64,000 bases of DNA from Thermoleophilia bacterium (GCA_050943595.1 JBMNPM010000007.1:6288-70287), one strand, 5' to 3'. Positions 11,580 to 60,633 are shown, counted from the first letter of the stretch. Numbers and translations are program-made. Notes: generated by a model not told the origin, from the letters alone.

Positions 11580-12542
11580 TCACTTCACGCCCTGGATCGC
11601 ATCCTTGACATGCTGAACGTAGATATCCTGGATCTCGTTGAACTGGCCAAGCCCCTCAAGGATGACCTCGACTTTAAAGCCCTCGGCCTCGAGAGTCGTC
11701 TTCCACGATCCCTCTTCATCGCCGGCCATGTCGTTATTGGCGTGGTCACCCGAGACCACCATAAGCGGCTCGAGCACTACCCTTTTGTATCCACCGGTCT
11801 TCGCAGCCGCGACGACATCGGTGAGTGTAGGAGTGCCCTCTACCGTGCCCACCAAGTAGTGGGGGTGTCCCGCCGCGGTGAGCTTGGTCTGAAGGTTACC
11901 GTACACCGCGTTTGCTTCGTGCTCCGTACCATGCCCCATGAATACCACCGCAGTACTGCCATCCATGTAAGAGGCCGTCCTCTCAGTGATGGACTTGATG
12001 ACCGCTGCAAAATCCTCGTCGCTGGTGAGTAGTGGTTTGCCTATTGCAACCTCGTCGAATTTGGTCTTGTACTTCTCCACCTCGGCCACCATGTCATCGT
12101 ACTCAAAGCCGTTCATCAAGTGGGTAGGCTGTACGATCACCGTCTTGATGCCGTCGGCCACGAGCTTGTCCAGCGCCTGCGTCACGTTGTCGATTTTGAT
12201 CCCGTCCCGCTCCGCAAGCTTGTCGATTATCATCTGCGCCGTGAAGGCCCGCCGAACCTCGTAATCAGGGAAGTTTTCCCCGATGGCCGCTTCGATAGCA
12301 CCGATCGTGATGTTTCTGCTGTCGTTGAAGCTGGTCCCGAAACTGACCACCAGTATGGCCTGGTCTTTCGCAGCCGCGGAGCCCTCGTCTTTTACCACTG
12401 TGGAACCCTCATCTTTTACCGCCGCGGCGCCCTCGTCCTTTACCGCGGAGCCGTTATCCGACTCGCCGCAACCCACGAGAACCGCGGAGAGCAGTACCAC
12501 TGCAATTGCAGCAATGATTCCGGCGATGATTCTCTTTTTCAC
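11580..12542 (-). CDS. cbiK: Sirohydrochlorin cobaltochelatase CbiK, exported (lipoprotein) form with (A)VKDEG triple repeat linker.
   Basis: CbiK fold motifs (LVVSFGTS, MGHGTEH, VSGDH) preceded by a signal peptide + Cys lipobox (LVGCGESD) and 3x VKDEG repeats. Confidence 0.7.
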   Translation of the reverse strand: MKKRIIAGIIAAIAVVLLSAVLVGCGESDNGSAVKDEGAAAVKDEGSTVVKDEGSAAAKDQAILVVSFGTSFNDSRNITIGAIEAAIGENFPDYEVRRAFTAQMIIDKLAERDGIKIDNVTQALDKLVADGIKTVIVQPTHLMNGFEYDDMVAEVEKYKTKFDEVAIGKPLLTSDEDFAAVIKSITERTASYMDGSTAVVFMGHGTEHEANAVYGNLQTKLTAAGHPHYLVGTVEGTPTLTDVVAAAKTGGYKRVVLEPLMVVSGDHANNDMAGDEEGSWKTTLEAEGFKVEVILEGLGQFNEIQDIYVQHVKDAIQGVK

Positions 12543-13026: not shown

Positions 13027-13066
13027 AAAAAAATGGCGCCCTTGGGAATATCATCCCAAGAGCGCC
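13027..13066 (-). terminator. Rho-independent terminator (riboswitch expression platform).
   Basis: Minus-strand GGCGCUCUUGGGA-loop-UCCCAAGGGCGCC followed by U7. Confidence 0.7.
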
Positions 13067-13127
13067 GTATTCTGCCCTAGTCACCTAGTACCACACCCCT
13101 GATCTCGAGGGTATGCTTAGCCTCTCG

Positions 13128-13290
13128 CCTACGGGTAGGTATTCTGGCTCCCGGATCACTCTACCGGCTGCGCCTTCCCATCCCTGCGGACAGTGGCATC
13201 AGCAGCCTTCGTCCCCGATCACAGCGGCGGCACCGCGACGGACTCTCACCGTCTTCCCTTGTGGCTGTATTCCAGCCACCCGTAGCCACG
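13128..13290 (-). ncRNA. Cobalamin (AdoCbl) riboswitch.
   Basis: Minus-strand transcript contains AAGGGAAGACGGUGAGAGUCCGUCGCGGUGCCGCCGCUGUGA, B12 box GCCACUG, GGGAAGGC and AGCCAGAAUACCUACC. P1 CUACGGGUGG/CCACCCGUAG. Followed by a terminator. Confidence 0.85.
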
Positions 13291-13386
13291 CGTATTATTA
13301 ACATGCGGTCTGCAGTGCGTCAATATTCCACGCGCCCCCAGCCGCTCCATGAAAATATGAATCCGCCCGGCAGGCGCATAGGGTAG

Positions 13387-14949
13387 TCACAATCCCATCC
13401 CAACGATGGTTGCCAGCAGGTTCGTGTCAAGATAATCGGATATGTGGTCGGTGAGGCGGTCGATGGAGGCCGTGCCGGCCCGGACCGGCTCTCCGGAGGA
13501 TTGAGCCTCCGCTCTCGCCTTCTCCGGCAGGCCGGCCGTCCTCCTGAGACTATTGAGGAACCGGTCTCGCACGGCTAGATGATCGAACAGACCATGGACA
13601 TACGAGCCAAAGACTGTGCCATCGAGCGACACTGCACCTTCGTCATGAGAATCCCTGTCCGAACCTGCAGTTCCGACGTGGCCGCCTCTCTTCTTAAGAC
13701 GAAGAAGCGGGCGGGCGCTTGGCCCACGTCGGCTCCTTCCCATATGGATCTCATAGCCACTCACGGGCGTCCCTTCCGGGCCGATGCCGGCTCCTGTAAG
13801 CTCACCGGTCACCCGCACCGTCCGTTTGTCGCCACCGAAGACCGTCTCTATATCCAGCAATCCGAGTCCTTGAGCCGAGAAGACCGTTGACTCTACTCGA
13901 TTAGGGTCAAGAATGACCTTGCCCAGCATCTGATAGCCGCCGCAGATGCCCACCACCGGCACCCCCTCCGCCGCCTTTGCAACGATCGCGTCCGCCAACC
14001 CGCTCTCCCGTAGCCAGCGTAGGTCGTCGATTGTGCTCTTGGTGCCCGGAAGAATGATGGCGGCCTTTCCCTCGAGCTCACGGGGAGAGGTGACGAAAAC
14101 CACCGAGACATCCTGTTCGTCGGAGAGAGCGTCGAAGTCCGTGTAGTTTGAGATAAAGGGCAGTCGCACGACAGCGATACGGACGGCGGCATTAGGCTTC
14201 GTGCGTCTCTGCCGGTCTTCGATACCCAGAGAGTCCTCCTCGTCTCCTCTCCAATCACTCAGATAGGGGATCACTCCCAGGGTGGGGATAGCCGTCCGTT
14301 CTTCTAAGAAGCGAATGCCGGAATCGAGAAGGGACGCGTCACCCCGGAACTTGTTGATCACGAAAGCCCGCACCAGCGCGCGCTCCTCCGGTTCCAAGAG
14401 TTCGACCGTCCCGAAGAGTGAAGCAAACACGCCGCCCCGATCGATATCGGCGACCAGGAGTACTGGAGCCCGCGCATACAGGGCCACTTTCATGTTGACG
14501 ATGTCGTGGTCGCGCAGGTTGATCTCGGCGATGCTCCCCGCACCCTCCACCACGATCAGGTCGTTGGCCGCCCGCAGCCGATCCAGCGCAGCGGTGACCA
14601 CCGGCCAGACCTGTCTTTGATAGGCGTGATACTCCCGCACCGACATGTGCCCCACCGGCCGGCCGAGAACGATCACCTCACTGCCGGTTTGGGAGCTGGG
14701 CTTGAGGAGGATGGGGTTCATGTCCACGTGCGGCTCGATACCGGCCGCGTCGGCCTGGTAGGCCTGAGCCCGACCCAACTCACCGCCTTCGGCCGTGACG
14801 AAGGAGTTAAGGGCCATGTTCTGCGCCTTAAAGGGGGCAACCCGTAAGCCACGGCGCGCATACATGCGACAGAGCGCGGCGGCAAGAACGCTCTTGCCGA
14901 CGTGTGAGCCCGTGCCGGCCACCATGACCACCTGCGCGGGGGCGACCAT
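13387..14949 (-). CDS. cobQ: Cobyric acid synthase CobQ/CbiP.
   Basis: VMVAGTGSHVGKS nucleotide-binding motif and a GATase-1 C-terminal domain. Start ATG at 14949 (MVAPAQV) preferred over the longer ORF. Confidence 0.85.
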   Translation of the reverse strand: MVAPAQVVMVAGTGSHVGKSVLAAALCRMYARRGLRVAPFKAQNMALNSFVTAEGGELGRAQAYQADAAGIEPHVDMNPILLKPSSQTGSEVIVLGRPVGHMSVREYHAYQRQVWPVVTAALDRLRAANDLIVVEGAGSIAEINLRDHDIVNMKVALYARAPVLLVADIDRGGVFASLFGTVELLEPEERALVRAFVINKFRGDASLLDSGIRFLEERTAIPTLGVIPYLSDWRGDEEDSLGIEDRQRRTKPNAAVRIAVVRLPFISNYTDFDALSDEQDVSVVFVTSPRELEGKAAIILPGTKSTIDDLRWLRESGLADAIVAKAAEGVPVVGICGGYQMLGKVILDPNRVESTVFSAQGLGLLDIETVFGGDKRTVRVTGELTGAGIGPEGTPVSGYEIHMGRSRRGPSARPLLRLKKRGGHVGTAGSDRDSHDEGAVSLDGTVFGSYVHGLFDHLAVRDRFLNSLRRTAGLPEKARAEAQSSGEPVRAGTASIDRLTDHISDYLDTNLLATIVGMGL

Positions 14950-14965: not shown

Positions 14966-16444
14966 TCAGTACTCAATCCCCCGGCGCGCCCAGATGTCCG
15001 GATAGGGATGTTTATGAGCAACCATCTGCGTTACAAGGTCGGCGGCGGCGCACAGCTCATCCGGCGCATATCGGCCGGTGGCAACCACCTCCACATGAGC
15101 CGGCCGCTCCTGCAGCGTTGAGAGCACCGAAACGATATCGAGAAGACCGTAATGGAGAGCCACATTCAGCTCGTCAAGAATCACAAGGTCCCAATCGCCC
15201 GAGAACATCAGTTCGTGCGCACTGTTCCAGGCCTGCACCACCCCCCGCTTATCTTCACTGTGCGCCGCCCCACAAAGAAGCCCTGTCGAACGCGAGGCAG
15301 GACGGACTACATGGACTCCGGCCAGACGCAGCCCGGCCAGCTCACCGCTTTCGGTCCCGCCTTTGAGGAACTGGACCATGGCCACCGTCAGTTCTTGACC
15401 GCGGGCACGAAGCGCCAGCCCTACCGCAGCCGTCGTTTTACCCTTACCCTCTCCTGTATAGACCTGGAGAAGACCCCGGCTCAAGCGCTGACGGCCGTCC
15501 GCTTCAGCGCCGGCTGCGCCTGGTTCAAGTAAGGATGACCCGGCGCCGCTCAAAGAAGCAGAACCGAGGGACTGCGTGGAGTGCGGCCGGCACCCCAAGT
15601 GGCGCCCCAAGTAAGACAACAGCTCCTCAACGCTCCTGACGGTCCTTCCCGGTGCCACCTGGGTGTCAACAGCATCGCCCTCAGGCCGCGCCACTACAAT
15701 GGCGGCGGCCCCGGCCGCGCGACACGCTTCGAGCTTGGCGTTCAACCCACCGGCCTCACCACTCTCTTTCGTGACCAACACGCCTGCCCCAAGGTGGCGG
15801 AGAAGAGCGGCGTCTAACTCTGCTCCGGTCGGCCCTTGCATGGCCAGAATATCTGCGGGAGCCAGTCCAAGTTCGCGACAGTGCGCAATGGACTCCTCCA
15901 CCGGCATCACCCGGGCAACGAGACGCCTGCCGGCTGCTCGAACGGCCTCTACATAGGTACGAAGCGTGCGGGTGCCGACGGTAACCAGGATCGCACTCTC
16001 ACCCCCGCTTTCAACTGCACGCGCCGCGGCAGTAGCGGCATCGGGTACAAGCATCGCGTCCTCAGGAAGCACCACTCTCGGACGCTCCAAGCGAACGTAG
16101 GGGACACCTAAACGATCGCATGCTCCACGAGCCAATGCAGAAATCTGTTGGGCAAACGGATGGGTAGCGTCGACCACCGCCTCGCTGCTCTCCAGAAGCG
16201 TCTCCAACCCGATCTCATCAAGCGCGCCGACGCGCACCCGCAACCGCCCCAAACGAGAGGCATCCGCCCGCCGGAGATCCCCCTTGGAGACCTTAGAGGC
16301 CCTGGGGAAATCCTCTGCTGTGGTGTTACGAGCGAGGTCCGCGCCGTGTTCGCTGACCACACTGAGCAGGACGTCGTACCCTCGCTCTTGGAGAAGCGAG
16401 GCCGCCAAGCGGGCATCCGAAGTGCCACCCAGAAGAAGAATCAT
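14966..16444 (-). CDS. cbiJ: Fusion protein: cobalt-precorrin-6A reductase CbiJ/CobK (N-terminal) + cob(I)yrinic acid a,c-diamide adenosyltransferase CobA/BtuR (C-terminal).
   Basis: N-terminal ~250 aa match CbiJ (MILLLGGTSDAR...). C-terminal ~180 aa match CobA/BtuR (GLLQVYTGEGKGKTTAAVGLALRA...ILDELNVAL). Confidence 0.75.
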   Translation of the reverse strand: MILLLGGTSDARLAASLLQERGYDVLLSVVSEHGADLARNTTAEDFPRASKVSKGDLRRADASRLGRLRVRVGALDEIGLETLLESSEAVVDATHPFAQQISALARGACDRLGVPYVRLERPRVVLPEDAMLVPDAATAAARAVESGGESAILVTVGTRTLRTYVEAVRAAGRRLVARVMPVEESIAHCRELGLAPADILAMQGPTGAELDAALLRHLGAGVLVTKESGEAGGLNAKLEACRAAGAAAIVVARPEGDAVDTQVAPGRTVRSVEELLSYLGRHLGCRPHSTQSLGSASLSGAGSSLLEPGAAGAEADGRQRLSRGLLQVYTGEGKGKTTAAVGLALRARGQELTVAMVQFLKGGTESGELAGLRLAGVHVVRPASRSTGLLCGAAHSEDKRGVVQAWNSAHELMFSGDWDLVILDELNVALHYGLLDIVSVLSTLQERPAHVEVVATGRYAPDELCAAADLVTQMVAHKHPYPDIWARRGIEY

Positions 16445-17292
16445 GCCTTCTGTCTCCCAGACAAAAACTCAGCATCTTTTACCGAATAACCCCGCGTAGT
16501 CACCATGCGCCCATCGCGGACCATCGTAGCGGTGTTGCCGACGATGATCACAGTCCTCATATCCAGGTCGTCCTCCTTCAGGCACTCAAGGGTAGTGACC
16601 CTCACCGACTGGCCCTCACGCAGAGCGTCCCGGACCACACCTACAGGCGTATCTGCGGCTCTACCCGCGCGGAGAAGCGCCAGAGCGCGCCTGAGCGGCT
16701 CCACCCGCCGGCTGCTGCGCGGGTTGTAGAGGGCGATGACAAAGTCGCCGGCAATAGCGCCGTTCAGCCGACGCTCGATCACCGCCAACGGCGTGAGAAG
16801 ATCACTTAGGCTTATCACGGCAAAGTCGTTCATGAGAGGAGCGCCCAGGCAGGCGGCTGCCGCAGAGGCAGCGGTGATCCCAGGAACGATCTCTACTTCT
16901 ACACAAGACTTTACCGGAAGCAACTCCAGCACAAGACCAGCCATGCCGTAGATACCGGCATCGCCGCTGCTTATCATGGCCACATGAGAGCCCTGCAGAG
17001 CCGCCTCAATCGCCAAGGTCGCCCGCTGCACCTCCCTACGCATGCCGCTGCTGATGGTGCGTTTGCCGGCAATCAACGGAGCCACGAGTTGCAGATACGG
17101 CTGGTAACCCACCACCACATCGGCCGCTCTGAGGGTCGCCTCCGCTGCCGGTGTCAGGTGATCTCTTCCGCCGGGGCCAATGCCCACGAGCCACAGACAT
17201 CCAGGGCGAGAGCCACAGTGACTCCCTCCCGGACCGTCCGCGGCCCGAGCAGCTTCATCTCGGACCCGGCCAGCAATGCCGCCGGTATGCAT
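16441..17292 (-). CDS. cbiH: Cobalt-factor III / precorrin-3B C17-methyltransferase CbiH.
   Basis: LWLVGIGPGG...GDAGIYGMAG SAM-MTase (tetrapyrrole methylase) motifs. Annotated start overlaps cbiG; true start probably later (~17200). Confidence 0.8.
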   Translation of the reverse strand: MHTGGIAGRVRDEAARAADGPGGSHCGSRPGCLWLVGIGPGGRDHLTPAAEATLRAADVVVGYQPYLQLVAPLIAGKRTISSGMRREVQRATLAIEAALQGSHVAMISSGDAGIYGMAGLVLELLPVKSCVEVEIVPGITAASAAAACLGAPLMNDFAVISLSDLLTPLAVIERRLNGAIAGDFVIALYNPRSSRRVEPLRRALALLRAGRAADTPVGVVRDALREGQSVRVTTLECLKEDDLDMRTVIIVGNTATMVRDGRMVTTRGYSVKDAEFLSGRQKA

Positions 17293-18011
17293 ACTGCCGC
17301 TACTCCTGTCGTCGTTTCCACGAAGTTGGGGTGGCGCAGAGACTCCTGCAGATCTCGGATGCGTGAGCGGGACACCACGTTAAGGGGGACACCCAGTACC
17401 CGCGCAGCCTCATGAAGCCCAGGCTCGTCCGCCTTGAGGTCGATGGTGGACAGAGCGCGCACGTCTGCACGTGAATGACCCGAGCCGGCAAGCGCTTCGT
17501 CGATGGCCGCGAGAGCGCACGCAGCCGTCACCCCGCGCCGGGCGCCGATGCCGACTGTAACCCTCCGGCGGGCCTCACTTCCCGTAGTCACCACTGCCGT
17601 CCCGCCGGTAATACCGGCTATCGACTCGGCCAACCGATTGGCTCCTCCTTCATGGCCACTCAGCAGGCTGATCACGTACCGGCCGCTATTGTCTACCACA
17701 ACCACGGCCGGATCGGTGAGCTTGGACTTCACCCAAGGCGCGATGGCCCGAACCATGATCCCACTGGCCATGATCCCCACAATGGCGGCGTGATCATCCC
17801 AGAGCGTGCCCACGAAATTGGGCAGCCCTCCTTCATACGTCCTGACCTCCGGTGACCTGCTCTTTGATATCGATTTCTGCGGAACCCACAGGGTGATCTC
17901 CTCCCGTCCGGTCTCCCGGCACAGCCTCGGCACCAACTCTCGGCCTAGAGTCAGCCCCTCCTCGGACACAGCCAGGATCGTGATGGCCCCAGGTCGCTCG
18001 AAGCGGGTCAC
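17154..18011 (-). CDS. cbiG: Cobalt-precorrin-5A hydrolase CbiG.
   Basis: CbiG-like sequence (ITILAVSEEG...VVVDNSGRYVISLLSGHEGGAN) in cbi operon position. Confidence 0.75.
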   Translation of the reverse strand: MTRFERPGAITILAVSEEGLTLGRELVPRLCRETGREEITLWVPQKSISKSRSPEVRTYEGGLPNFVGTLWDDHAAIVGIMASGIMVRAIAPWVKSKLTDPAVVVVDNSGRYVISLLSGHEGGANRLAESIAGITGGTAVVTTGSEARRRVTVGIGARRGVTAACALAAIDEALAGSGHSRADVRALSTIDLKADEPGLHEAARVLGVPLNVVSRSRIRDLQESLRHPNFVETTTGVAAVCIPAALLAGSEMKLLGPRTVREGVTVALALDVCGSWALAPAEEIT

Positions 18012-18871
18012 AGCGCCTCTTCCTTCCCAGCCTCTTCCTCCTTAGCCTCTCCCTCCCCGGCCCGGTATCCGTGCGAGAAGCTGCGATCGTACAGCTTCGA
18101 AGGCCCCCCTTCATTGCGCAAGACCTCGCCGACGAGAATCATAGCGGTGCGATCGATGCCGGCCTCAGCCACCAAAGCCGCGATGTCTCTCAGCGTGCCC
18201 CGCACGATGCGCTGTTCGGGCCACGTGGCCTTGTACACTACGGCGACAGGAGTTTCTTCCGGGTAGTGCGCACGGAGGGAACTCACGATGTCGGCCATAT
18301 GGTCCGCCGAAAGGAAGATGGCCATGGTGGACCGGTGGGCGGCCAGATCCGCCAGTGCCTCGGTCTGGGGTACGGGGGTCCGCCCTGCTGTGCGCGTGAT
18401 AATCACTGTTTGCGAAACCCCGGGCAGAGTCAACTCAGTGGCGATGGCAGCTGCCGCAGCAGAGAAGGAGCTGACCCCGGGCACCACTTCGTAGGGCACC
18501 CCCTCCTCGTCCAGCCGCGCCATCTGTTCGCCTATGGCGCCAAACAGGCCGGGGTCGCCGGTATGCAACCGTACCACCTTCCGCCCGGACCTATGACCGT
18601 CCACCATAAGGGAGACGATCTCATCCAGATGCATCCCCGCACTGTCGTAAATCTCCACTCCGGATGAGGCCCACGTGAGCACCTCCTTCGGCACCAGCGA
18701 CCCTGCGTAGATGACCACATCGGCTTCCTCGAGGAGCCGCCTGCCCCGCACCGTGATGAGTTCGGGGTCTCCCGGACCCGCTCCCACGAACCAGATCACT
18801 CCTTCTCCCCCTCTATCGCAGCCCTGCGCTTCGCCAATACGGTCGTGAAGTAATCGTACGACCCGGCCCAC
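18008..18871 (-). CDS. cbiF: Cobalt-precorrin-4 C11-methyltransferase CbiF.
   Basis: VIWFVGAGPGDPELITVRG...VVRLHTGDPGLFG. True start likely near 18770. Confidence 0.8.
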   Translation of the reverse strand: MGRVVRLLHDRIGEAQGCDRGGEGVIWFVGAGPGDPELITVRGRRLLEEADVVIYAGSLVPKEVLTWASSGVEIYDSAGMHLDEIVSLMVDGHRSGRKVVRLHTGDPGLFGAIGEQMARLDEEGVPYEVVPGVSSFSAAAAAIATELTLPGVSQTVIITRTAGRTPVPQTEALADLAAHRSTMAIFLSADHMADIVSSLRAHYPEETPVAVVYKATWPEQRIVRGTLRDIAALVAEAGIDRTAMILVGEVLRNEGGPSKLYDRSFSHGYRAGEGEAKEEEAGKEEAL

Positions 18872-19515
18872 GAACGCAGGTCGCTGGTGTGGTCCGCCGC
18901 TGCCTGACCGGTTCTCCGCATTGCCACCGCATCGATTTCCAAACCAGAGACCAGATCGGCAAGGCAGTCGAGATAAGCAGCCGCCTTCATGAACACCACA
19001 TTGGGGATGGTTTCCAACCAGTGCTCCATGTCGTCGTTGGGAGCCTCTGACCAGATGAGCAGAGGCTCACGCCCCTGAGCAAGAGGAATACCCGCGGATG
19101 CAGCGCAGGCGGAGATGGAAGTGACGCCCGGGATGGTCTCCACAGGCACCTGGGGGACCTCCTCGCGCAGAGCCGCGGCTACGTACCCCCAGGTGGAGTA
19201 GAGCGTGGGATCTCCAAGAGTGATGAAGACTGCCGAGCGACCGGCGAGCGCCTCACGGGCCAACGATCTCGCCGTGCGCGCCCATGCCGCTTCAAGCGTG
19301 CTTCGCACTTCGGTCATGGGGAGTTCGGGCGTGACGATCTCACAGTCCGGTGGCAGATAGGGCCGAGCTATGTCGAGAGCCAGACTGACCCCGTCCCCAC
19401 GTGCACTCGGAGCAACCACTACATCTGCCGTAGCCAGCACCTCAGTCGCACGTACGGTGAGCAGCCCAGGGTCGCCTGGCCCCACTCCCACACCGTAGAC
19501 CATCCCCACGGTCAT
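18796..19515 (-). CDS. cbiL: Cobalt-precorrin-2 C20-methyltransferase CbiL.
   Basis: MTVGMVYGVGVGPGDPGLLTVRA... Start ATG 19515 overlaps the cbiT stop (ATGA). Confidence 0.75.
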   Translation of the reverse strand: MTVGMVYGVGVGPGDPGLLTVRATEVLATADVVVAPSARGDGVSLALDIARPYLPPDCEIVTPELPMTEVRSTLEAAWARTARSLAREALAGRSAVFITLGDPTLYSTWGYVAAALREEVPQVPVETIPGVTSISACAASAGIPLAQGREPLLIWSEAPNDDMEHWLETIPNVVFMKAAAYLDCLADLVSGLEIDAVAMRRTGQAAADHTSDLRSWAGSYDYFTTVLAKRRAAIEGEKE

Positions 19516-20216
19516 CGGGGACCACCCTCCCGGGCCTCGAAGGCGTCGCCATCGTTGAGGGACCCGGCCAGTTCGGCCGAGACAATCCAAACGGGGTTCA
19601 AAGCATCGAAACGCAACTGTCTGCCGACAGCCACGCCACGAGCGATGCTCGCCTGAATGCAATCGAATCCCCGCCACCCCTCTCCACGCAGACACGAAAC
19701 GGTAGAGGACAGGGTCTCCACACATACGCACGGGCAGATAACCATACCCCCGGGTGACAGGATTGACGGCAAAGCAGCAAGTATCTCCGCCAGGCGACCG
19801 CCACTTCCCCCCACGAAGACCCGGTCGAAGCAGCCCAATCCGGCCCAGGCATCCGGCGCTTCTCCCGCGATCACCTGCACACGCGCGGATGCCGGCCGGC
19901 CGTAGTGTCCCGACTGATGAAGAAGCCCAAAATGCTCCAAGCCAAAATGCTCTAGATTTGCCTGCAGGACGGCCAGCGCCTCTCGATCTCTCTCGATAGC
20001 CACGACCTCACCACCCGGGCAGAGCAGGCACGCCTCCACGGTCAGACTGCCGCTTCCCGCGCCCACGTCCAGCACCCGGGCGCCTGGATGCAGGCGCGCT
20101 TTAGACATGAGAAGGGCCCGCACCTCGGCTTTGGTCATGGGCACATCCCCGCGCACAAACTGGTCATCAGGTATGCCGAAAAAGCCGTCGCACAACGCCT
20201 TCCCGTCGACAGTCAT
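19512..20216 (-). CDS. cbiT: Cobalt-precorrin-6B C15-methyltransferase (decarboxylating) CbiT.
   Basis: SAM MTase motif VLDVGAGSGSLTVEA. Contains an in-frame 15-bp tandem duplication (HFGLEHFGL). Confidence 0.75.
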   Translation of the reverse strand: MTVDGKALCDGFFGIPDDQFVRGDVPMTKAEVRALLMSKARLHPGARVLDVGAGSGSLTVEACLLCPGGEVVAIERDREALAVLQANLEHFGLEHFGLLHQSGHYGRPASARVQVIAGEAPDAWAGLGCFDRVFVGGSGGRLAEILAALPSILSPGGMVICPCVCVETLSSTVSCLRGEGWRGFDCIQASIARGVAVGRQLRFDALNPVWIVSAELAGSLNDGDAFEAREGGPR

Positions 20217-22285
20217 GTCTCCTCCCTATCATCCATCTTGTAGGGATGATCCCCGTAGTTCAGTGATGGTCCCTGTGGGCCGGTGACGGTTCCCATGGAT
20301 AACGGTCCCTGTGGGCTGGTGTCGATGAGAACCACGGAGAGCGGGTCAAAGCGCCCGTCCGCGATCTCGGAGAGATTCCCTTCTACTACGTTTTCATCGG
20401 AGTAGCCGAGGCGCTCGAGAACAGTCATCCGACCGTCGATGCCGGCTTCCAACAGGCCGGCCGCCAGGGCCTGGGGATTGTGGGGAAGATCGGTAAGGGC
20501 GAGCACGCGGGGGTGCTCACAGACGGCGGCCAGCACCTCGTCAATGCCCCTGCCGTGCGCGCTTGCAAACCTAACGGCCTCCCAGCTGAGTCCAAGCCGG
20601 ACCAGCGCCAGCTGGAAGGAACTGATGCCCGGCACTACCTGCAAAGCGATGTCGGGAAACCGGCGGCGCAAAGTAGCAAGGATACCGTAGCAGCTGGGAT
20701 CGCCCGAGGCCACCACGACAACCCGCCGATGCAACCGGTCACGCACGGCGGCCTCCACGGCATCCATATCAGAGCCGATAACGATGCGCTCAGCCTGTGC
20801 AGGGGCGAAACGGTCCAGGTGACGCGCACCGCCCACCACCACATGAGCACGTTTGACGGCCTGCCATGCTGCGGCACTGGCATGCTCTTCCGCTCCCGGC
20901 CCCACACCAACCACAGTGATGCCCGGTGACCCACCCAACCTCGAAGTCACCAACGCTTCACGCAATCGCCCACTGCATCCAAGGACCAGGTCGTCATACC
21001 CCACCAGCAGGCAGTCGACCGGAGGCGGCACCCGGTTGGCGGCTCGCGCAGTTAGAGCGGCGCGTGCCTCCGACCTTTGGGCGGCCCGCTCCGCAATATC
21101 ATCCCAAACGTCGGTCAGCCCCGCTTCAGCCAACGCAGGTATGGCGGCCTCCACAGTGGGCAGCTCCAACAGGCGTCCAACCAAACCGGCGGGTGCACCC
21201 GCAGCCCCCGCCAGCGCGGCCACCGTCTCCAGGCGAGCGTCACCGTGGCGGCTGTGCGTGTCGAAGATGCCCGCCGCCACCTTCACCAGCTTCCCCACGT
21301 GTCCGACCAGCACCAGTCGCTCCACCCCGCGCTCTGCGCACACATCGATCAGTGCCCCAATGAAGTTAGAGCAGCGCACGATGGCGACCTCCGGTGCATC
21401 CAGTACCTTCTGGGCTGCACGCTCGCCAAACCCACCCGGAACTAAATAAACAGTGCTTACACCGGCAGCAAGAGCCACGTCGACCTGGGGGATGAGCGAG
21501 CGCAACCAAGCCTCCTCGGAGCGGGGAATCACCCGCCCGCTGGTTCCCAGGATAGAGAGACCTCCTGCAATACCCAAGCGCGGATTGAATGTTCTCTCCG
21601 CCAACTCCCGGCCTCCAGGGATGGTGATGGTAACGCGATAGCGCTTCTCCATCCCAGGGGATCCATCACCCAAAGAATGTGCCTCATCTAGAGCTTCCTG
21701 AAGCGCTTCGGCGATCATCCTTCTGGGGACCGGGTTAATGGCGGGCTCGCCCACATCGAGCTGCAGACCGGCTCGGGTCACGGTCCCCACCCCTTCTCCC
21801 GCCACGAACTGTACCGCCGGCAGACGGGAGGATACGGATCTCAAGGCGGCAGACTCCGGATCGCTGCAAGACCCGGCGCAGAGTTCGGTTCCCGATCCGG
21901 CGCTCAGTCCAGCGCCCGGTCCGACGCCCAGCCCCTCCGTCACTTCCAAGTCCACGTGCACGGTCACTCCATCCGTGACATCCGGGTCGTCCCCCGCGTC
22001 CTTGACCAACTCCGCCCATGCTCGACCCGGACCCGTGATCCCTGCCGCCTCCACGGGCAGAACGACCCGCTCGCCGCTCGGAAGCGAGATATCGACCGCC
22101 TCTACCGCTACACCGGCCAGGACCAAAGCCGCAGCCTTGGCCGCCGCCGCAGCACAGGTCCCAGTCGAGTAACCGGTTCGGTTCTTGCTCGTTGTAGTCA
22201 CTCCTTGTCTGCCATCCGCAGCAGTGCATTGACCGTCGCCGCCGCCAACGGACTCCCTCCCCGAGCACCCTCGATCGATATCCAC
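20213..22285 (-). CDS. cbiD: Fusion protein: cobalt-precorrin-5B C1-methyltransferase CbiD (N-terminal) + cobalt-precorrin-7 C5-methyltransferase CbiE (C-terminal).
   Basis: N-terminal region matches CbiD (RTGYSTGTCAAAAAKAA...ILGTSGRVIP). C-terminal ~200 aa match CbiE (ITVVGVGPG...VVVASGDPSCYG). True start probably near 22205 (just after the cbiC stop). Confidence 0.75.
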   Translation of the reverse strand: MDIDRGCSGRESVGGGDGQCTAADGRQGVTTTSKNRTGYSTGTCAAAAAKAAALVLAGVAVEAVDISLPSGERVVLPVEAAGITGPGRAWAELVKDAGDDPDVTDGVTVHVDLEVTEGLGVGPGAGLSAGSGTELCAGSCSDPESAALRSVSSRLPAVQFVAGEGVGTVTRAGLQLDVGEPAINPVPRRMIAEALQEALDEAHSLGDGSPGMEKRYRVTITIPGGRELAERTFNPRLGIAGGLSILGTSGRVIPRSEEAWLRSLIPQVDVALAAGVSTVYLVPGGFGERAAQKVLDAPEVAIVRCSNFIGALIDVCAERGVERLVLVGHVGKLVKVAAGIFDTHSRHGDARLETVAALAGAAGAPAGLVGRLLELPTVEAAIPALAEAGLTDVWDDIAERAAQRSEARAALTARAANRVPPPVDCLLVGYDDLVLGCSGRLREALVTSRLGGSPGITVVGVGPGAEEHASAAAWQAVKRAHVVVGGARHLDRFAPAQAERIVIGSDMDAVEAAVRDRLHRRVVVVASGDPSCYGILATLRRRFPDIALQVVPGISSFQLALVRLGLSWEAVRFASAHGRGIDEVLAAVCEHPRVLALTDLPHNPQALAAGLLEAGIDGRMTVLERLGYSDENVVEGNLSEIADGRFDPLSVVLIDTSPQGPLSMGTVTGPQGPSLNYGDHPYKMDDREET

Positions 22286-22827
22286 ACCAAGTCCGAGGCC
22301 ATGAGAGCGCTCTTCGATTCCGCAGCATCTACGAAGCCTACCGGCATCCCCACCACCAAGGCCGGACGGGCGACACCCTCGCGCGCCAGAGCGAGGACCT
22401 CGCGCAGACCCGTGGGAGCATTGCCTATGGCCACTATCCCCCCATCAAGGTGGTGGACCAGTGCCCGCATGGCAGTGGCGGCCCGAGTCCGCCCCGTCCT
22501 ACCGGCCTCCTTCGCCACCATCTCGTCCGCGATGGCACACAAGACTTGACCTCCCAGGCGCTCCACCCGGCCCCGATTGACACCCAGCAGCACCATCTGT
22601 GTGTCGGTGATCACAGTGACGCCCTGAGAGAGCGCTTCCACCCCCACTCTCATTGCCCGGGGATGGAATCGCACCATCGGCGCAAGCAACGGGTCGCCGG
22701 AGGCATGCACGAGACGCATCACCACCGGCAACTCCTCGGGGCGACAGCAATCCGGCGGCAGCAGCGAAGCGACGATCTCCATACTGCGCTTTTCTATGTC
22801 CTCGGGACCCAGCACAGCGTCTTTCAT
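22198..22827 (-). CDS. cbiC: Cobalt-precorrin-8 methylmutase CbiC.
   Basis: CbiC/CobH motifs (VHASGDP, ITDTQMV, IVAIGNAPT). Start ATG 22827 overlaps the cbiA stop. Confidence 0.8.
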   Translation of the reverse strand: MKDAVLGPEDIEKRSMEIVASLLPPDCCRPEELPVVMRLVHASGDPLLAPMVRFHPRAMRVGVEALSQGVTVITDTQMVLLGVNRGRVERLGGQVLCAIADEMVAKEAGRTGRTRAATAMRALVHHLDGGIVAIGNAPTGLREVLALAREGVARPALVVGMPVGFVDAAESKSALMASDLVWISIEGARGGSPLAAATVNALLRMADKE

Positions 22828-24314
22828 CCCCTCTCTTTTGATCGTTGTATTGGCAGACCTCCCGGTCTCGACTCTCCGTAGACCGCGCACCTGGCCAGCC
22901 AGTGATCCACAGCCCGAGGACGGCCGGCGAAGTGAAGGTGTATGCATGAGGCGAAGAGATCGCCGCTCACAAAACCCTCGGGGCACCCCTCAACCATATA
23001 GGCCGGTGAGCATCCGTGAAACCTACTCCGGTCGATAATGCAACGAGAGTAGCGAAACTCATGCCCTCGCAGCACATCACCGGCCCGCCCCAGCAGACAA
23101 TCCGCAGCAAGCACTCCCTCGCGATAGCCGACCGACTGCAGGCGTCCGTACACAGTGGCCCTCGCCGGAACCGCACCCACCAACCGATAGGTTGCGCTTT
23201 CGAGATCTGCGAGCGTTTCGGACAGATAGAGGAGCCCGCCGCACTCTGCGTAGGTGGGAAGACCGTCGGCGATAGCAGTGTGTATGCTCTCGATCAGGCC
23301 GGCATTGGCTGCTAGGGTGCCGGCGTGCAGCTCCGGAAACCCGCCCCCCAAATAGAGGCCTTCACACTCAGGAAGCGCCTCCGCCGTTAGGGGGCTGAAG
23401 GGGATCAGGGTAGCACCGGCGCGCTCCAGGGCCCTGAGGTTGTCCTGATAGTAGAAGGCAAAGGCATCATCGAGAGCCACCGCAATCCGGAGGCCACTCG
23501 CTTCTGGACGCTGCGCTGGGGAGAAAGCCGAGGCGGTCGTGCCGTCGACCCGCTCCCCCTTCGAGCTCGATGAACATGGGTCCGACGAACATAAGTCCGG
23601 CGGACATAGACCCGACGAACACCCTTCTCGCGCCACCTCCAGCAGACGATCGAGGTCCACGTGGGCCTCGACAAGCTCGGCCAACCTCCCCATGACCACC
23701 TCTACCTCGTTACCCAGCTCCCCGGCAACCACCAGCCCCAGATGGCGTGTGGGCAGCACGACCTCCGGCGCCGGCGGCACGAGGCCCAAGAGCTCCACCC
23801 CGGCCCGATCCAGAGCCGCGGCCACTGCGCCTAGGTCACGATGAGACCCCCAGCGGTTGAGAATAACCCCCGGCACATCCACACGGTCGTCGTACGTCCG
23901 AAAGCCCAGGGCCAGGGCACCCACACTGGCCGCGGTACGTGATGCGTCCACCACCAGAACCACCGGCACCCCCAGAAGGGCTGCTATATCGGCAGTACTG
24001 GTTGGAGTAACTCCGTCGCGATGGCCGTCGAACAGTCCCATCACCCCTTCGATGACGACCATATCGGCCACGCCTGTCTGCGATGCCACGGCCTCCTGCA
24101 CCGCCTCGCGGCCCATCATCCACAGATCCAGATTACGACCCGGTTGACCCGTCGCGAAGTGCTGGTAACCCGTGTCGAGGTAGTCCGGCCCCACCTTGAA
24201 CCCCTGCACCTGCAAACCGCGGCGTCGCAGCGCGGCCATGATGCCCAGAGCGACGGTCGTCTTGCCGTCGCCACTGCGCGGAGCCGCTATAACGACTGCC
24301 GGTGGCCGCCTCAA
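22824..24314 (-). CDS. cbiA: Cobyrinic acid a,c-diamide synthase CbiA.
   Basis: VIAAPRSGDGKTTVALGIMAAL, with a C-terminal GATase domain. Confidence 0.85.
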   Translation of the reverse strand: MRRPPAVVIAAPRSGDGKTTVALGIMAALRRRGLQVQGFKVGPDYLDTGYQHFATGQPGRNLDLWMMGREAVQEAVASQTGVADMVVIEGVMGLFDGHRDGVTPTSTADIAALLGVPVVLVVDASRTAASVGALALGFRTYDDRVDVPGVILNRWGSHRDLGAVAAALDRAGVELLGLVPPAPEVVLPTRHLGLVVAGELGNEVEVVMGRLAELVEAHVDLDRLLEVAREGCSSGLCPPDLCSSDPCSSSSKGERVDGTTASAFSPAQRPEASGLRIAVALDDAFAFYYQDNLRALERAGATLIPFSPLTAEALPECEGLYLGGGFPELHAGTLAANAGLIESIHTAIADGLPTYAECGGLLYLSETLADLESATYRLVGAVPARATVYGRLQSVGYREGVLAADCLLGRAGDVLRGHEFRYSRCIIDRSRFHGCSPAYMVEGCPEGFVSGDLFASCIHLHFAGRPRAVDHWLARCAVYGESRPGGLPIQRSKERG

Positions 24315-25432
24315 CGGGGCTCCCCATCCGGACGCAGTTCCTCCAATTTCGCAAACGCCGCCAACAGAAGCCGGTTCTGCGCAGGCAGCCGCGGACTTAT
24401 CCTGATGTACTGAGAAAGCCCGAACGATGAGCAGTCACGAACCAGGCACCCCTGCTCCAGCAGACGCCTCCTCACCAAAGCCGCATTCCTCACTCGGACA
24501 AGGAAGAATCCGGCATCTGAGGGGAGAACCGTCCACCCCTGAGCCCACAGCCCCAAGACGAGGTCGTCCCGGCCGCTACGCAACAGCCGGACGGCCTCAT
24601 AATACGCAGCCGGATCATTGAGAACGGCTTCCCCAGCAGCCTGCGCGCAGGCGTTGACGCTCCAGGGAGGCTTTGCAGCGCGAAGAGCCGCAGCCATCGA
24701 GTCGTGGGCCAACGCATAGCCCAGGCGCAGGCCCGCCAATCCCCACGCCTTGGTCATAGAACGAAGGACAACCAAATTCCCACGAGCCAGCGTGGTGGCA
24801 GTCCACTGGGGATATTCCAATAGGTCACAGTAGGCTTCGTCAAGAACAAACACGATCCCCGGAAAGCAGGCCACCAGCTCCTCGATGGCCTGCGGAGGGA
24901 CAGCCGTGCCGGTAGGGTTGTTCGGCGAGCAGAGCCAGCAGAGTTTGGGCAGGAATTGCTCGAGCGCGCGCACAAACGCATCCTCTCGATAGATAAACGC
25001 GCCCTTCTCCAAGAACAGGCGGTGTTCTATAAAAGACGCGCGGGCAATCACGGAGGCGACCTCATACTCGCCGAAGGAGGGGGCAAGGGAAAGAGCCACA
25101 TCTCCTTCGCGGAGAATAATCTGGGCGAGGAGGCGGATGAGTTCGGTGCTCCCGTTGCCCACCACCACCTGGGCAGGGTCTACGCCGTGCCGGATCGCGA
25201 CCGCGCCGGCAAAACCCCGCGCGTCGCGATCCGGGTAGGCCTCCAAAACAGCGCCCGCAATGGCTGCTCGAATCCTCGGCGAGACCGCCAGTGGGGATTG
25301 ATTAGCACTGAAGTCGATCACCTCGGTCCGCTCAAGACCGAGCGCCCGCAACTCAGCCTCGTCGATGCCTCCATGAACGGCAGGTGTCACTGCGAGAGGA
25401 GACGACCGGTTCGAGGTGAAGATCTGAATCAT
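24311..25432 (-). CDS. cobD: L-threonine-O-3-phosphate decarboxylase CobD (PLP class I/II aminotransferase fold).
   Basis: Aminotransferase-like with PLP lysine region (LRSMTKAWGLAGLRLGY) in the cob operon. Start ATG at 25432 (MIQIFTS...). Confidence 0.7.
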   Translation of the reverse strand: MIQIFTSNRSSPLAVTPAVHGGIDEAELRALGLERTEVIDFSANQSPLAVSPRIRAAIAGAVLEAYPDRDARGFAGAVAIRHGVDPAQVVVGNGSTELIRLLAQIILREGDVALSLAPSFGEYEVASVIARASFIEHRLFLEKGAFIYREDAFVRALEQFLPKLCWLCSPNNPTGTAVPPQAIEELVACFPGIVFVLDEAYCDLLEYPQWTATTLARGNLVVLRSMTKAWGLAGLRLGYALAHDSMAAALRAAKPPWSVNACAQAAGEAVLNDPAAYYEAVRLLRSGRDDLVLGLWAQGWTVLPSDAGFFLVRVRNAALVRRRLLEQGCLVRDCSSFGLSQYIRISPRLPAQNRLLLAAFAKLEELRPDGEPR

Positions 25433-25472
25433 GGGCAACGGCACCCACCGACCGCTCTGATTCCCTGATACG

Positions 25473-27752
25473 TCAACATATTTCTCCGCGCACACGTGCG
25501 GCAGCTTTGACCATATTCTCTAGTGAAGCGGTAGCTTCACACCAGCCCCGCGTCTTCAATCCACAGTCTGGGTTTACCCATACCCGTTCCGCCGGAAAGA
25601 CCTCAAGAATTCGGCGGATACGTTCCGCCATCTCCTCAACCGAAGGGATTCGAGGACTGTGAACATCCCAAACACCAGGACCGATCTCACGCGGATACTC
25701 TTGATCTAGGAATGTCCCAAGCAACTGCATACCACTACGACACGCCTCAATGCTAATGACATCGGCATCCATTTCAACGATCCAAGAAGCAATGTCACCA
25801 AAATCACCGTAACACATGTGGGTATGGATTTGCGTCTCATCTCTTACACTTGATGTGGCTATTCGGAATGCGTCAACAGCCCATCTTAAGTATGCGTCTC
25901 TGTCACAAAAACGAAGTGGGAGCCCCTCTCGTAGGGCCGGCTCGTCAACCTGGATGATACGAATACCTGCGGCTTCCAGGTCTTGGACTTCGTCTCGAAC
26001 GGCCAAGGCAACCTGTCGTGCCACATCCTGCCGGTCGATGTCGTTTCGCACGAAACTCCACTGGAGCATTGTCACCGGACCTGTGAGCATACCTTTGAGC
26101 GGCTTGCTCGTAAGTGATTGGGCGAACGTGATCCAACCAAGAGTAATAGCCTCCGGGCGAGAAACGTCTCCATAGATGATCGGGGGCTTGACGCATCGAC
26201 TGCCGTAGCTCTGTACCCACCCGTGCCGGGTCGTGCAGAATCCCTTCAGGTGTTCGGCGAAATACTCGACCATATCGTTGCGTTCCGGCTCGCCGTGAAC
26301 GAGTACATCCACACCAACCTGAAGCTGGGCCTCAACGATGTCGCGAATGAAGTCATACATGGCCTGCTCGTAGTCCGCGTGCAGCGTCTTCCCGGTCTTG
26401 TGCGCGTTGCGAATGCTGCGCATTTCCCGGGTTTGGGGAAAGGATCCAATGGTTGTTGTGGGCAGAAGGGGCAGTTGAAGAGCTGCCTGTTGCAGGGGAC
26501 GTCTCACCGCGTAGGGCTGGTTGCGGTGGAGCATATCTGCAGTGACGGCTTCACATCTCTGCCTGACATGTGGATCGATTGTGTTTGCCGCCTTCTGTAG
26601 ATAAGACTCGGCCTCCGGCTTCGCGGAGGAGACTTCGGAGGAAGCCCCGCCTCCTAGGTAGAGACTGTCCAAAGCTCTGAGTTCCGCACACTTCTGCACG
26701 GCAAAAGCCAGCATGGCGCTGATTGCAGGCTCGATTTCGGTCTCCTCGCCCAAATCCACGGGAACATGGAGGAGAGAACACGACGTGCCAAGCATGACGC
26801 GGTCGGTTCCCAGCGCCTGGGCAGCGTGGTCAATGTGCCGAAGGGCCGTGTCCACATCTACTTTCCATATGTTCCGGCCATCAACGAGACCAAGGGATAG
26901 CGCCGGTCCGCTTGGTAGCCGGTTTATTGTCTCGGTGAGCTGTCCCGGAGCTGAGACGAGATCTATATGAAGTGCACCCAGGCTTGGGTTACAAACCGCG
27001 TCGATATTCTCGTCCAAAGAGCCGAAGTAGGTGGCCAGCATCAGCTTCGCGGGGAAGGCGGCCCTGATCAGACGATCCAGAATCGAGGAGAAGCAGGCCC
27101 GCTCCTCTACGGACATGTGCATGGTCACGATCGGTTCGTCGAGTTGGATCCATTCCGATTTGTCACTGAGAACTCCCAGTATTTCTTCATAGGCTGCAAC
27201 CAGCGACTCGACATGGCCCATAGCGTCGCGGCCTTCGTCTATAACCCTACTCAATCGCAGAAAAGTCATGGGGCCGAGAAGCACAGGCTTGACGCGAATG
27301 CCTGCAGCTACGGCTTCGTCGATCTGGTCGACCAGTGAATGGCAGTCGGGTTGGTAGTGCCCTCGAGAGTCCAGCTCCGGAACAATGTAATGGTAGTTGG
27401 TATCGAACCACTTGGTCATCTGTAGAGCGTGGACACCATCGGAGTCCCGATCGCCCCGAGCCATACGGAAGTAGCTGTGCAGATCAATCAATCCGTCGCG
27501 CCGTCTATACCGCTCAGGCACGGCACCCAGTATCACCGCCGTATCGAGTACATGGTCGTAGAGCGAGAAGTCACCAACCGGCAGAAGATCGATTCCATGT
27601 TCTCTTTGGAGTCGCCAATTTTGCATTCTCACCATACGGGCAGATTCCCTCAGGTCGGCTTCCGAGATCTCGTCCGCCCAAAATGCTTCTAGAGCCAGTT
27701 TCAGCTCCCGTTTCTTACCGATGCGGGGAAAGCCGAGTGTGTGGGTTAGCAT
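25473..27752 (-). CDS. metE: Cobalamin-independent methionine synthase MetE.
   Basis: Two-domain MetE (MLTHTLGFPRIGKKREL...). Start ATG 27752 with GGAG RBS; overlaps the nrdG stop by 7 nt. Confidence 0.9.
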   Translation of the reverse strand: MLTHTLGFPRIGKKRELKLALEAFWADEISEADLRESARMVRMQNWRLQREHGIDLLPVGDFSLYDHVLDTAVILGAVPERYRRRDGLIDLHSYFRMARGDRDSDGVHALQMTKWFDTNYHYIVPELDSRGHYQPDCHSLVDQIDEAVAAGIRVKPVLLGPMTFLRLSRVIDEGRDAMGHVESLVAAYEEILGVLSDKSEWIQLDEPIVTMHMSVEERACFSSILDRLIRAAFPAKLMLATYFGSLDENIDAVCNPSLGALHIDLVSAPGQLTETINRLPSGPALSLGLVDGRNIWKVDVDTALRHIDHAAQALGTDRVMLGTSCSLLHVPVDLGEETEIEPAISAMLAFAVQKCAELRALDSLYLGGGASSEVSSAKPEAESYLQKAANTIDPHVRQRCEAVTADMLHRNQPYAVRRPLQQAALQLPLLPTTTIGSFPQTREMRSIRNAHKTGKTLHADYEQAMYDFIRDIVEAQLQVGVDVLVHGEPERNDMVEYFAEHLKGFCTTRHGWVQSYGSRCVKPPIIYGDVSRPEAITLGWITFAQSLTSKPLKGMLTGPVTMLQWSFVRNDIDRQDVARQVALAVRDEVQDLEAAGIRIIQVDEPALREGLPLRFCDRDAYLRWAVDAFRIATSSVRDETQIHTHMCYGDFGDIASWIVEMDADVISIEACRSGMQLLGTFLDQEYPREIGPGVWDVHSPRIPSVEEMAERIRRILEVFPAERVWVNPDCGLKTRGWCEATASLENMVKAAARVRGEIC

Positions 27753-30600: not shown

Positions 30601-30734
30601 AGCCTTCTCCGTCGTTGTGGAGGCAGAGGCGGGAAGGCCAGGGGTAAACCAAGCTCCCAGGGCACTAGGAACCAGGACACCAGTGAGCCGACCGCCTCTC
30701 TCCCTCGAAGTTGCGGTAGCAGTGCATACTCTCG

Positions 30735-30915
30735 GCCGGTCTTCGGGCTTGTAGGCAGATCCGTCGTGAGACGAGGGGTTCTACTGGTCATCGCTTCCCA
30801 GCCCTAGTTGAGCCAGTGCTTAACTGATGACTTTCGTTCCTACTTACCGCTGCGGGGCAGCTCCGGAATTGCACCGGATTCCCGTGTGAATTGTGAAGCG
30901 TAGGCCACAAATCAC
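30735..30915 (-). ncRNA. Candidate cobalamin riboswitch (divergent variant) in the nrdD 5' leader.
   Basis: Minus-strand transcript contains GGGAAUCCGGUGCAAUUCCGGAGCUGCCCCGCAGCGGUAA (the GGGAA..CGGUG.AA.UCCG...CCCGC...GUAA core), AGCACUGG (B12-box-like), GGGAAGCG and CGGAUCUGCCUAC. A possible anti-RBS (GCCUUCC) lies before the GGAGAAGG RBS. Confidence 0.5.
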
Positions 30916-31178
30916 GCCGACAGCCATTACAGTTTATCCAGGCAAAGGGAGGGCAGTCAAGTATCGGAGGGCGGTTCGAAAAGCGGTCAAGTATCCGTTG
31001 TGGGGAATCCGTTATGGGAGATGCTCAGGCCGGCAACCCTTAGGCGACGCCGTCGGCCTCCACGCGCAACGGCGATCAACACGCATTGGAACAATTCGTC
31101 GCGCTCCGTCGCGCTCGTCAGGTGAGAGGGTTTGAGTAGCCGGGGAAGGCTCAGCTAGAAACAAATCTTGGAGAGTAA

Positions 31179-47415: not shown

Positions 47416-47509
47416 GGAGAAGTGGCCGAGAGGCTGAAGGCGCTCGCCTGCTAAGCGAGTGAAGGAGTGAATGCTCCTTCCGAGGGTTCGAATCCCTCCT
47501 TCTCCGCCA
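47416..47509 (+). tRNA. tRNA-Ser (anticodon GCU), CCA encoded.
   Basis: GGAGAAG acceptor stem pairs with CTTCTCC; anticodon loop CUGCUAA; long variable arm; TTCGAAT T-loop. Confidence 0.85.
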
Positions 47510-47513
47510 CTAG

Positions 47514-47587
47514 GCGCCTGTAGCTCAGCTGGATAGAGCGTTGGTCTACGAAACCAAAGGTCATGGGTTCGAATCCCGTCAGGCGCG
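47514..47587 (+). tRNA. tRNA-Arg (anticodon ACG).
   Basis: GCGCCTG acceptor pairs with CAGGCGC; anticodon loop CUACGAA; GTTCGAAT T-loop. Confidence 0.85.
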
Positions 47588-60544: not shown

Positions 60545-60633
60545 GGAGAGGTGGCAGAGCGGTTGAATGCGGCGGTCTCGAAAACCGTTGGGCCGTGCAA
60601 GCGGTCCCGGGGGTTCGAATCCCCCCCTCTCCG
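60545..60633 (+). tRNA. tRNA-Ser (anticodon CGA).
   Basis: GGAGAGG acceptor pairs with CCTCTCC; anticodon loop CUCGAAA; long variable arm; GGTTCGAAT T-loop. Confidence 0.8.

Follow-up and report, generated by a model that had tools for sequence, protein, structure and literature searches.

Two gene fusions in one cobalamin biosynthesis operon raise a simple question: are they real bifunctional genes, and does the choice of partners say anything about the chemistry of the pathway? The fusions lie in a 64,000-nucleotide (nt) stretch from a Thermoleophilia bacterium (GCA_050943595.1 JBMNPM010000007.1:6288-70287), a metagenome-assembled genome (MAG). The whole stretch is called the window here. 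At positions 14966-22285, the original prediction had noticed that CbiE is fused to the C-terminus of CbiD and that the precorrin-6 reductase CbiJ is fused to the corrinoid adenosyltransferase CobA (BtuR). Both fusion genes and their neighbors are on the minus strand. We conclude, with a probability of about 0.82, that these are two real, conserved bifunctional genes which arose by fusion of neighboring genes in a tightly packed, riboswitch-controlled operon, and that each half probably keeps its own activity.

Both fusions had been described as continuous open reading frames (ORFs), and this description holds. No internal stop was found in the cbiJ-cobA frame or in the cbiD-cbiE frame (20213-22285), and Pfam identified the four expected domains, CbiD, TP_methylase, CbiJ and CobA_CobO_BtuR. 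The longest form of CbiD-CbiE has 690 amino acids (aa). The true start is likely the GTG at 22201, because this codon and the stop of cbiC overlap as GTGA, AAGGAG lies upstream and the product has 662 aa, which is the length of the NCBI protein. That NCBI entry (P0001, 662 aa) is 100% identical to CbiD-CbiE of the window and comes from a 112-kb contig of the MAG.

On the 690-aa form, the Pfam match to CbiD spans residues 36-339 (E 2e-86) and that to TP_methylase spans residues 456-642 (E 6e-32). The CbiD half scored 289.8 bits with PF01888 (cut-off 25) and 368.3 bits with TIGR00312 (cut-off 200). The CbiE half scored 175.8 bits with TIGR02467 (cut-off 92.9), and the runners-up among the methylase models, cobJ_cbiH and cobI_cbiL, reached at most 55.6 bits. 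Class III methyltransferases have as their hallmark an N-terminal glycine-rich loop that binds S-adenosylmethionine. The CbiE half carries the motif VGVGPG, and G460, G462 and P463 are invariant across an alignment of 26 CbiD-CbiE proteins (A1). A low-complexity insert in CbiD (residues ~118-155, 21820-21935) is present in full in the closest relatives and in shorter versions in the more distant fusion proteins of A1. The C-terminal tail after CbiE (20216-20314) is confined to the closest relatives, at 79-91% identity.

The CbiJ-CobA protein is 100% identical to an entry (P0121) that JGI names "precorrin-6x reductase/cob(I)alamin adenosyltransferase". Pfam found CbiJ (E 4e-61) and CobA_CobO_BtuR (residues 323-492, E 3e-52) on the 492-aa protein. 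The CbiJ half scored 176.7 bits with TIGR00715, above the cut-off of 129.85, and matched the solved CobK structure 4X7G (E 5e-12). It has a low-complexity, lineage-specific insert at residues ~40-66 (16247-16327), again confined to relatives at 79-91% identity. The CobA half scored 177.9 bits with PF02572 (cut-off 25.7) and covered profile positions 2-172 of 172. Its residues 320-492 aligned end to end with residues 25-196 of Salmonella CobA (1G5R, E 4e-22). The P-loop GEGKGKTT is present, matches GxGKGKT and is invariant in an alignment of 24 CbiJ-CobA proteins (A2). The LDEL, TGR and C-terminal motifs of Salmonella CobA are also kept.

AlphaFold2 models were confident for all four domains. 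For CbiD-CbiE, the mean predicted local distance difference test score (pLDDT) was 82.1 and the predicted template modeling score (pTM) was 0.64. About 96 residues were disordered, among them residues 1-34 and 660-690 (pLDDT <50) and the insert at 123-152; the 28 N-terminal residues that are extra in the 690-aa form belong to the disordered part. For CbiJ-CobA, the mean pLDDT was 82.7 and the pTM was 0.56, with disorder in the linker (286-315) and in the insert (49-64). In the model, CbiJ-CobA resembles two separate bodies joined by a flexible tether. Judged from pTM alone, the domains of CbiD-CbiE may pack more closely than those of CbiJ-CobA.

In principle, separate genes could have been wrongly joined in this MAG by a frameshift introduced in sequencing or assembly, or by loss of a stop codon. 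The window is metagenome-assembled, and the neighboring junctions are 4-nt overlaps, where an error of one nucleotide would be enough to join two frames. To weigh against this, we have the homologs of each fusion protein, counted as the best 120 clusters from NCBI, JGI, ENA and Logan assemblies. PF01888 and PF00590 occurred together in 117 of the 120 clusters for CbiD-CbiE, and PF02571 and PF02572 in 80 of the 120 for CbiJ-CobA, over a range of 40-100% identity. The fusions are therefore found in more than 100 and about 80 independent clusters, respectively, from four data sources and down to 40-45% identity. Close relatives at 79-91% identity carry the same fusions in independent assemblies. 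The two observations that would have refuted the original prediction, an internal stop and loss of the fusions in close relatives, are thus both contradicted. In A1 and A2 both halves are conserved, whereas the linkers stay in frame and vary in length and composition. Invariant residues fall in VGVGPG of CbiE, in GGT at the N-terminus of CbiJ and in GxGKGKT of CobA. This pattern suggests that both halves of each fusion are under selection. Since halves and motifs are conserved and the junctions are in frame but variable, each fusion appears to be a functional two-domain protein and not a frameshift error. Moreover, the isolate genome of a cultured species, Thermodesulfitimonas autotrophica (GCA_003815015.1, L082), carries CbiD-CbiE. 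We regard an artefact as effectively refuted.

The original prediction had called both fusions unusual, and here the two part ways. CbiD-CbiE is widespread and common, as its 117 clusters indicate. MAGs that carry it are labeled Thermoleophilia, Solirubrobacteraceae, Armatimonadota, Acidobacteriota, Desulfotomaculales and Bacillota, and it is also present in a Syntrophomonas genome (L003). CbiJ-CobA is truly rare, although ~80 clusters contain it at the 90% identity level. When 1.84 billion representatives (50% identity) were searched exhaustively, 4,521 clusters matched at E <=1e-10, and only ~6-8 of these were full-length fusions. Below them, the search scores dropped to single-domain level.

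The two fusions were verified directly on one contig in three cases: the window, L081 and L086. Because 21 contigs of the same size occur in both homolog lists, the two fusions seem to co-occur often. A single linked innovation was considered and rejected, since L082, L083 and L084 have CbiD-CbiE without CbiJ-CobA. CbiJ is free in L082 (Thermodesulfitimonas). In L083 and L084, CbiJ is a 311-aa protein without a CobA domain, 61% identical to the CbiJ half of the window, and cbiP follows directly.

How would such genes arise? In each case immediate neighbors, cbiD with cbiE and cbiJ with cobA, have been joined within a very compact anaerobic cbi operon. The three ATGA overlaps that had been reported are present, at 20213-20216 (cbiD-cbiE/cbiT), 19512-19515 (cbiT/cbiL) and 16441-16444 (cbiH/cbiJ-cobA). 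GTGA overlaps within 14966-22285 are found at 22198-22201, 18796-18799 and 18008-18011, and further overlaps lie just beyond, at 22824-22827, 24311-24314 and 28396-28399. Nearly all junctions of the operon are thus 4-nt stop/start overlaps. For this reason the frames would be prone to merge: two reading frames would become one if a stop codon were lost or if a short frameshift arose where the genes overlap.

The unfused neighbor state was sought among 80 species-representative loci, a biased set with mostly unfused cbiD that serves for junctions and not as a census. A separate cbiE directly follows cbiD in 29 of these 80 listed loci, and in 26 of the 29 the cbiD stop either overlaps the cbiE match or precedes its start by <=41 nt. 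It had been stated that CbiE is normally free or fused to CbiT, and the 29 loci agree: CbiE is fused to CbiT in nine, cbiT stands on its own just downstream in 13, and in seven no cbiT was found there. CbiT is a separate gene in the window, as had been noted, and also in the fusion relatives L001, L003 and L081-L084. Because adjacent, separate cbiD and cbiE are found in 29 of the listed loci, the gene order D-E-T appears to be ancestral and common, and the lineage of the window would have merged D with E, not E with T.

In a neighbor-joining tree of the CbiD domain, fused forms fall in three separate clades: a large one with the window in it, one of Bacillota, and Syntrophomonas beside an unfused Desulfotomaculum. 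This suggests that CbiD-CbiE fused recurrently, probably with more than one origin. The three clades argue against a single origin, tentatively, because the branches carry no support values.

For cbiJ and cobA, L085 (labeled Armatimonadota) has the same operon order with separate genes of 254 aa and 176 aa (15177-16458). They share 14 nt, and cobA starts at an ATG of its own. This arrangement looks like the pre-fusion state. L081 and L086 match the gene order of the window from cbiA through cbiP, with both fusions, except for a small cbiX between cbiA and cbiC. The neighbor-gene ("Rosetta stone") pattern is accordingly found for both fusions, for cbiD/cbiE in the 29 listed loci and for cbiJ/cobA in the noisy assembly of L085.

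Other fusions were seen in relatives: CbiJ-CbiP, CbiJ-methylase-CbiA, methylase-CbiJ, TP_methylase-CobA, MeaB-CobA, a uroporphyrinogen methylase-HemD fusion and a single 577-aa CbiM-CbiN-CbiQ protein. Examples from this group are found at L081 12924-14465 and 15247-16980, and in proteins P0242, P0363, P0308, P0323 and P0316. The combinations with CbiJ and CobA show that these domains fuse promiscuously with whatever adjoins them.

Several points weigh against the neighbor-fusion explanation with all activities kept. The CbiD tree was built without bootstrap support. L085 is the sole unfused cbiJ/cobA neighbor pair found, and it is a MAG with damaged cbiA and cbiT: cbiA has two in-frame stops (7588-8973), and a frameshift divides cbiT (11631-12211). 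Its cbiJ/cobA split could be an assembly error or gene decay. The CbiJ-CobA linkers, at 30-100 aa, exceed what a plain merge at a junction would leave, so later linker expansion must be assumed. The CobA half falls narrowly under the NCBIfam equivalog cut-offs (TIGR00708 156.5 bits against 167.75, NF004637 162.5 against 185), and it has Leu and Cys where Salmonella CobA has Phe91 and Trp93. Finally, the case that all four activities are kept is drawn from conservation only.

The last points about CobA could mean that this half is no longer a standard adenosyltransferase, and that it acts on an earlier cobalt-precorrin or serves as a corrinoid-binding or chaperone module. Such a change would fit the two low scores and the Leu and Cys residues. 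In the anaerobic route, cobalt is already within the substrate of CbiJ, which also counts for it. L086, which has both fusions, encodes in addition a stand-alone 201-aa CobA beside fur-cobU-cobT-cobS. Its two CobA-type enzymes (420-1025 and 15458-16795, on the minus and plus strands, respectively) would allow a division of labor and may leave room for a split between de novo synthesis and salvage. Against an altered function stand the full-length alignment with Salmonella CobA and the P-loop, LDEL, TGR and C-terminal motifs. We take Phe91/Trp93 to be the functional aromatic pair of Salmonella CobA and not a family-wide feature. The pair is missing from most of the stand-alone CobA representatives retrieved as well, and the closest stand-alone CobAs (e.g. 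P0260) carry the same STGLL motif as the fused CobA. Loss of the pair as a peculiarity of the fused CobA was therefore rejected. No other adenosyltransferase gene was found within the cbi cluster of the window. An altered CobA half is improbable, and retention of the standard activity is preferred.

With neighbor fusion and retained activities as the explanation, each half would catalyze its own step. The CbiD half would methylate cobalt-precorrin-5B at C1, the CbiJ half would reduce cobalt-precorrin-6A, the CbiE half would methylate cobalt-precorrin-7 at C5, and the CobA half would adenosylate cob(I)yrinic acid a,c-diamide. The pathway order is CbiD, CbiJ, CbiT, CbiE, then further steps to CbiA and the adenosyltransferase (review PMC7242693). 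The fused partners therefore act at non-consecutive steps, as the original prediction had pointed out. Since the fused partners are physical neighbors in the operon, these non-consecutive steps need no special explanation and are no evidence of special coupling. No new chemistry, enzyme or pathway is implied. The likely benefit would be fixed 1:1 expression and co-localization, in a pathway whose intermediates are tightly held and handed on.

An extension of this explanation is that the fusions form a metabolon, which holds the late corrin enzymes together so that bound cobalt-precorrins pass between active sites. CbiD-CbiE would bracket the CbiJ and CbiT steps, and CbiJ-CobA would tie reduction of the macrocycle to the later adenosylation. 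If CbiD acts at step n, then CbiE acts at n+3, CbiJ at n+1 and CobA at about n+6. CobK, the homolog of CbiJ, buries its product, and the next enzyme has been proposed to trigger release (PMC4663756), which makes co-localization or a metabolon plausible. The co-occurrence of the two fusions (21 size-matched contigs, with direct verification in the window, L081 and L086) is in its favor, and the pTM of 0.64 for CbiD-CbiE, reached despite ~96 disordered residues, allows some fixed packing. However, the partners are simply operon neighbors, so a functional logic is unnecessary. The two fusions also occur independently, and the same domains are found in many other pairings. The tether in CbiJ-CobA is long and disordered and shows no conservation, and the pTM is 0.56. 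We consider a metabolon possible but rather unlikely.

A stronger proposal is that CbiJ-CobA, together with CbiD-CbiE, reflects real mechanistic coupling. In one version, a late-corrin metabolon, the tethered CobA would receive or act on cobalt corrinoids before the a,c-diamide stage; in another, the NAD(P)H site of CbiJ would serve the cobalt reduction needed for adenosylation. If true, either version would change the sequence of steps now accepted for anaerobic B12 synthesis or the electron source assigned to it. We find it very improbable and retain the fusion of neighboring genes without special coupling.

The features of the two fusions and of the surrounding operon are collected in Table 1.

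Table 1. Positions of the fusion genes, their predicted domains, neighboring cbi genes and riboswitches in the window.
Feature	Position	Strand	Evidence and remarks
cbiD-cbiE fusion gene, 662 aa	20213..22201 (longest ORF to 22285, 690 aa)	-	continuous ORF; both domains by Pfam and NCBIfam
CbiD domain (predicted cobalt-precorrin-5B C1-methyltransferase), residues ~36-445, 690-aa numbering	20951..22180	-	TIGR00312
CbiD-CbiE linker, short, residues ~446-455	20921..20950	-	variable-length unconserved columns in A1; pLDDT dip at 449-451
CbiE domain (predicted cobalt-precorrin-7 C5-methyltransferase), residues ~456-657	20315..20920	-	TIGR02467; ~30-aa disordered tail, then stop at 20213
cbiJ-cobA fusion gene, 492 aa	14966..16444	-	continuous ORF, no stop; ATG overlaps cbiH stop (ATGA)
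CbiJ domain (predicted cobalt-precorrin-6A reductase), residues 1-285	15590..16444	-	TIGR00715; 4X7G match
CbiJ-CobA linker, low-complexity, disordered, residues ~286-317	15494..15589	-	pLDDT <50 at 286-315; length and sequence vary in A2
CobA/BtuR/CobO-type ATP:corrinoid adenosyltransferase domain (predicted), residues 318-492	14969..15493	-	PF02572
Cobalamin riboswitch, head of co-directional array nrdD-nrdG-metE-cobD-cbiA...cbiP	30717..30936	-	RF00174, 89.4 bits (gathering score 31.5), full-length
cbiA, directly on the upstream side	22824-24314	-	NCBIfam and Pfam
cbiC, between cbiA and cbiD-cbiE	22198-22827	-	NCBIfam and Pfam; ATGA overlap 22824-22827
cbiT, separate gene	19512..20216	-	TIGR02469, 108 bits (cut-off 78.3); ATG overlaps cbiD-cbiE stop (ATGA)
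cbiL, likely start ATG 19515	18796..19515	-	TIGR01467, 193 bits (cut-off 163); ATGA overlap with cbiT stop
cbiF, likely start GTG 18799	18008..18799	-	TIGR01465, 353 bits (cut-off 260); GTGA overlap
cbiG, GTG start	17154..18011	-	Pfam CbiG_N and CbiG_C; GTGA overlap with cbiF stop
cbiH, start ambiguous (ATG 17292 or GTG 17187)	16441..17292	-	TIGR01466, 313 bits (cut-off 246)
cbiP (cobyric acid synthase), final gene of array	13387..14949	-	NF001989, 627 bits
Second cobalamin riboswitch	13117..13298	-	RF00174, 105 bits, full-length

In the direction of transcription, the first run on the minus strand consists of the first riboswitch, nrdD, nrdG, metE, a gene for a CobD-type aminotransferase, cbiA, cbiC, cbiD-cbiE, cbiT, cbiL, cbiF, cbiG, cbiH, cbiJ-cobA and cbiP. 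The start of cbiH depends on the codon chosen: the ATG gives a 139-nt overlap with cbiG, and the GTG sits at the GIGPG motif. The second run follows the second riboswitch and contains cbiK, a gene for a weakly NEAT-like protein, btuF-, btuC- and btuD-like transporter genes, and cbiB. Promoter-like sites lie just upstream of both riboswitches (30960-30931 and 13323-13294). A 13-bp GC-rich hairpin with a T-run (13035-13066, minus strand), 3' of the second riboswitch, is probably its terminator expression platform.

The genes for the B12-independent proteins NrdD, NrdG and MetE (24311-30600, minus strand) head a nearly gapless co-directional array with the cbi genes, under one riboswitch. No convincing terminator was seen upstream of cbiP in this array. 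If one transcript of ~17.5 kb, repressed by B12, covers the array, it would link the functions for doing without B12 to those for making it.

The weakly NEAT-like protein has 299 aa (10566-11465, minus strand) and lies between cbiK and the BtuF-like protein; its NEAT match is below the threshold (25.9 bits against 32.8). It may bind corrinoids or heme at the cell surface as part of the adjoining ATP-binding cassette (ABC) uptake system. Elsewhere in the window, a 1037-aa signaling protein of the seven-transmembrane (7TM)-GAF-GGDEF-EAL type is encoded at 31179-34292 (minus strand). The G+C content is as low as 0.36 across 32001-34000, against mostly 0.55-0.65, and this gene was possibly acquired horizontally. 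Four more GGDEF proteins are encoded at 978-2363, 2766-3695, 35242-36393 and 60973-63747. Three tRNA genes, two of them in tandem, were found at 47416-47587 (+) and 60545-60633 (+).

The fusions matter for annotation. NCBI names each fusion protein by one half, "CbiD" and "precorrin-6A reductase", so CbiE and the adenosyltransferase could be scored as missing. Thermoleophilia-like and related uncultured bacteria could then be mistaken for B12 auxotrophs in automated pathway reconstruction. The two proteins are also natural constructs for asking whether tethering of late corrin enzymes raises flux, which bears on engineering of the B12 pathway. More generally, 4-nt overlapping junctions make operon neighbors prone to repeated merging.

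A full-text search of the searchable literature library found no description of a CbiD-CbiE or CbiJ-CobA fusion, and no dedicated model for either architecture was matched among the NCBIfam models. NCBIfam does hold models for other bifunctional families, including CbiK/CbiC and CobBC (NF004449, NF053748).

The closest known system to CbiD-CbiE is CobL/CbiET. Like the protein of the window, it fuses two late-corrin methyltransferases from neighboring genes, and the CbiE parts are homologous (PMC7242693). However, CbiE of the window is joined at its N-terminal side to CbiD, not at its C-terminal side to CbiT. CbiT has its own ORF, which starts at the ATGA overlap with the cbiD-cbiE stop, and the window fusion is thus not of the CobL/CbiET type. 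The partners in CobL/CbiET are also consecutive, whereas CbiD and CbiE are three steps apart. For the 492-aa protein, Salmonella-type CobA/BtuR (1G5R) and CobK/CbiJ (4X7G) each match one half, with the nucleotide-binding motifs kept. Compared with these stand-alone enzymes, the pair in the window is covalently joined by a ~30-aa disordered linker and has Leu/Cys in place of Phe91/Trp93. The cobalamin and siroheme fusion proteins CysG, CobD/CbiP, BluB/CobT2, CbiK/CbiC and CobBC show the same phenomenon, in which pathway enzymes have merged into one polypeptide in particular lineages. Fusions of cobalamin enzymes are a well-known kind, and the two described here look like ordinary mergers of neighbors, not a new system.

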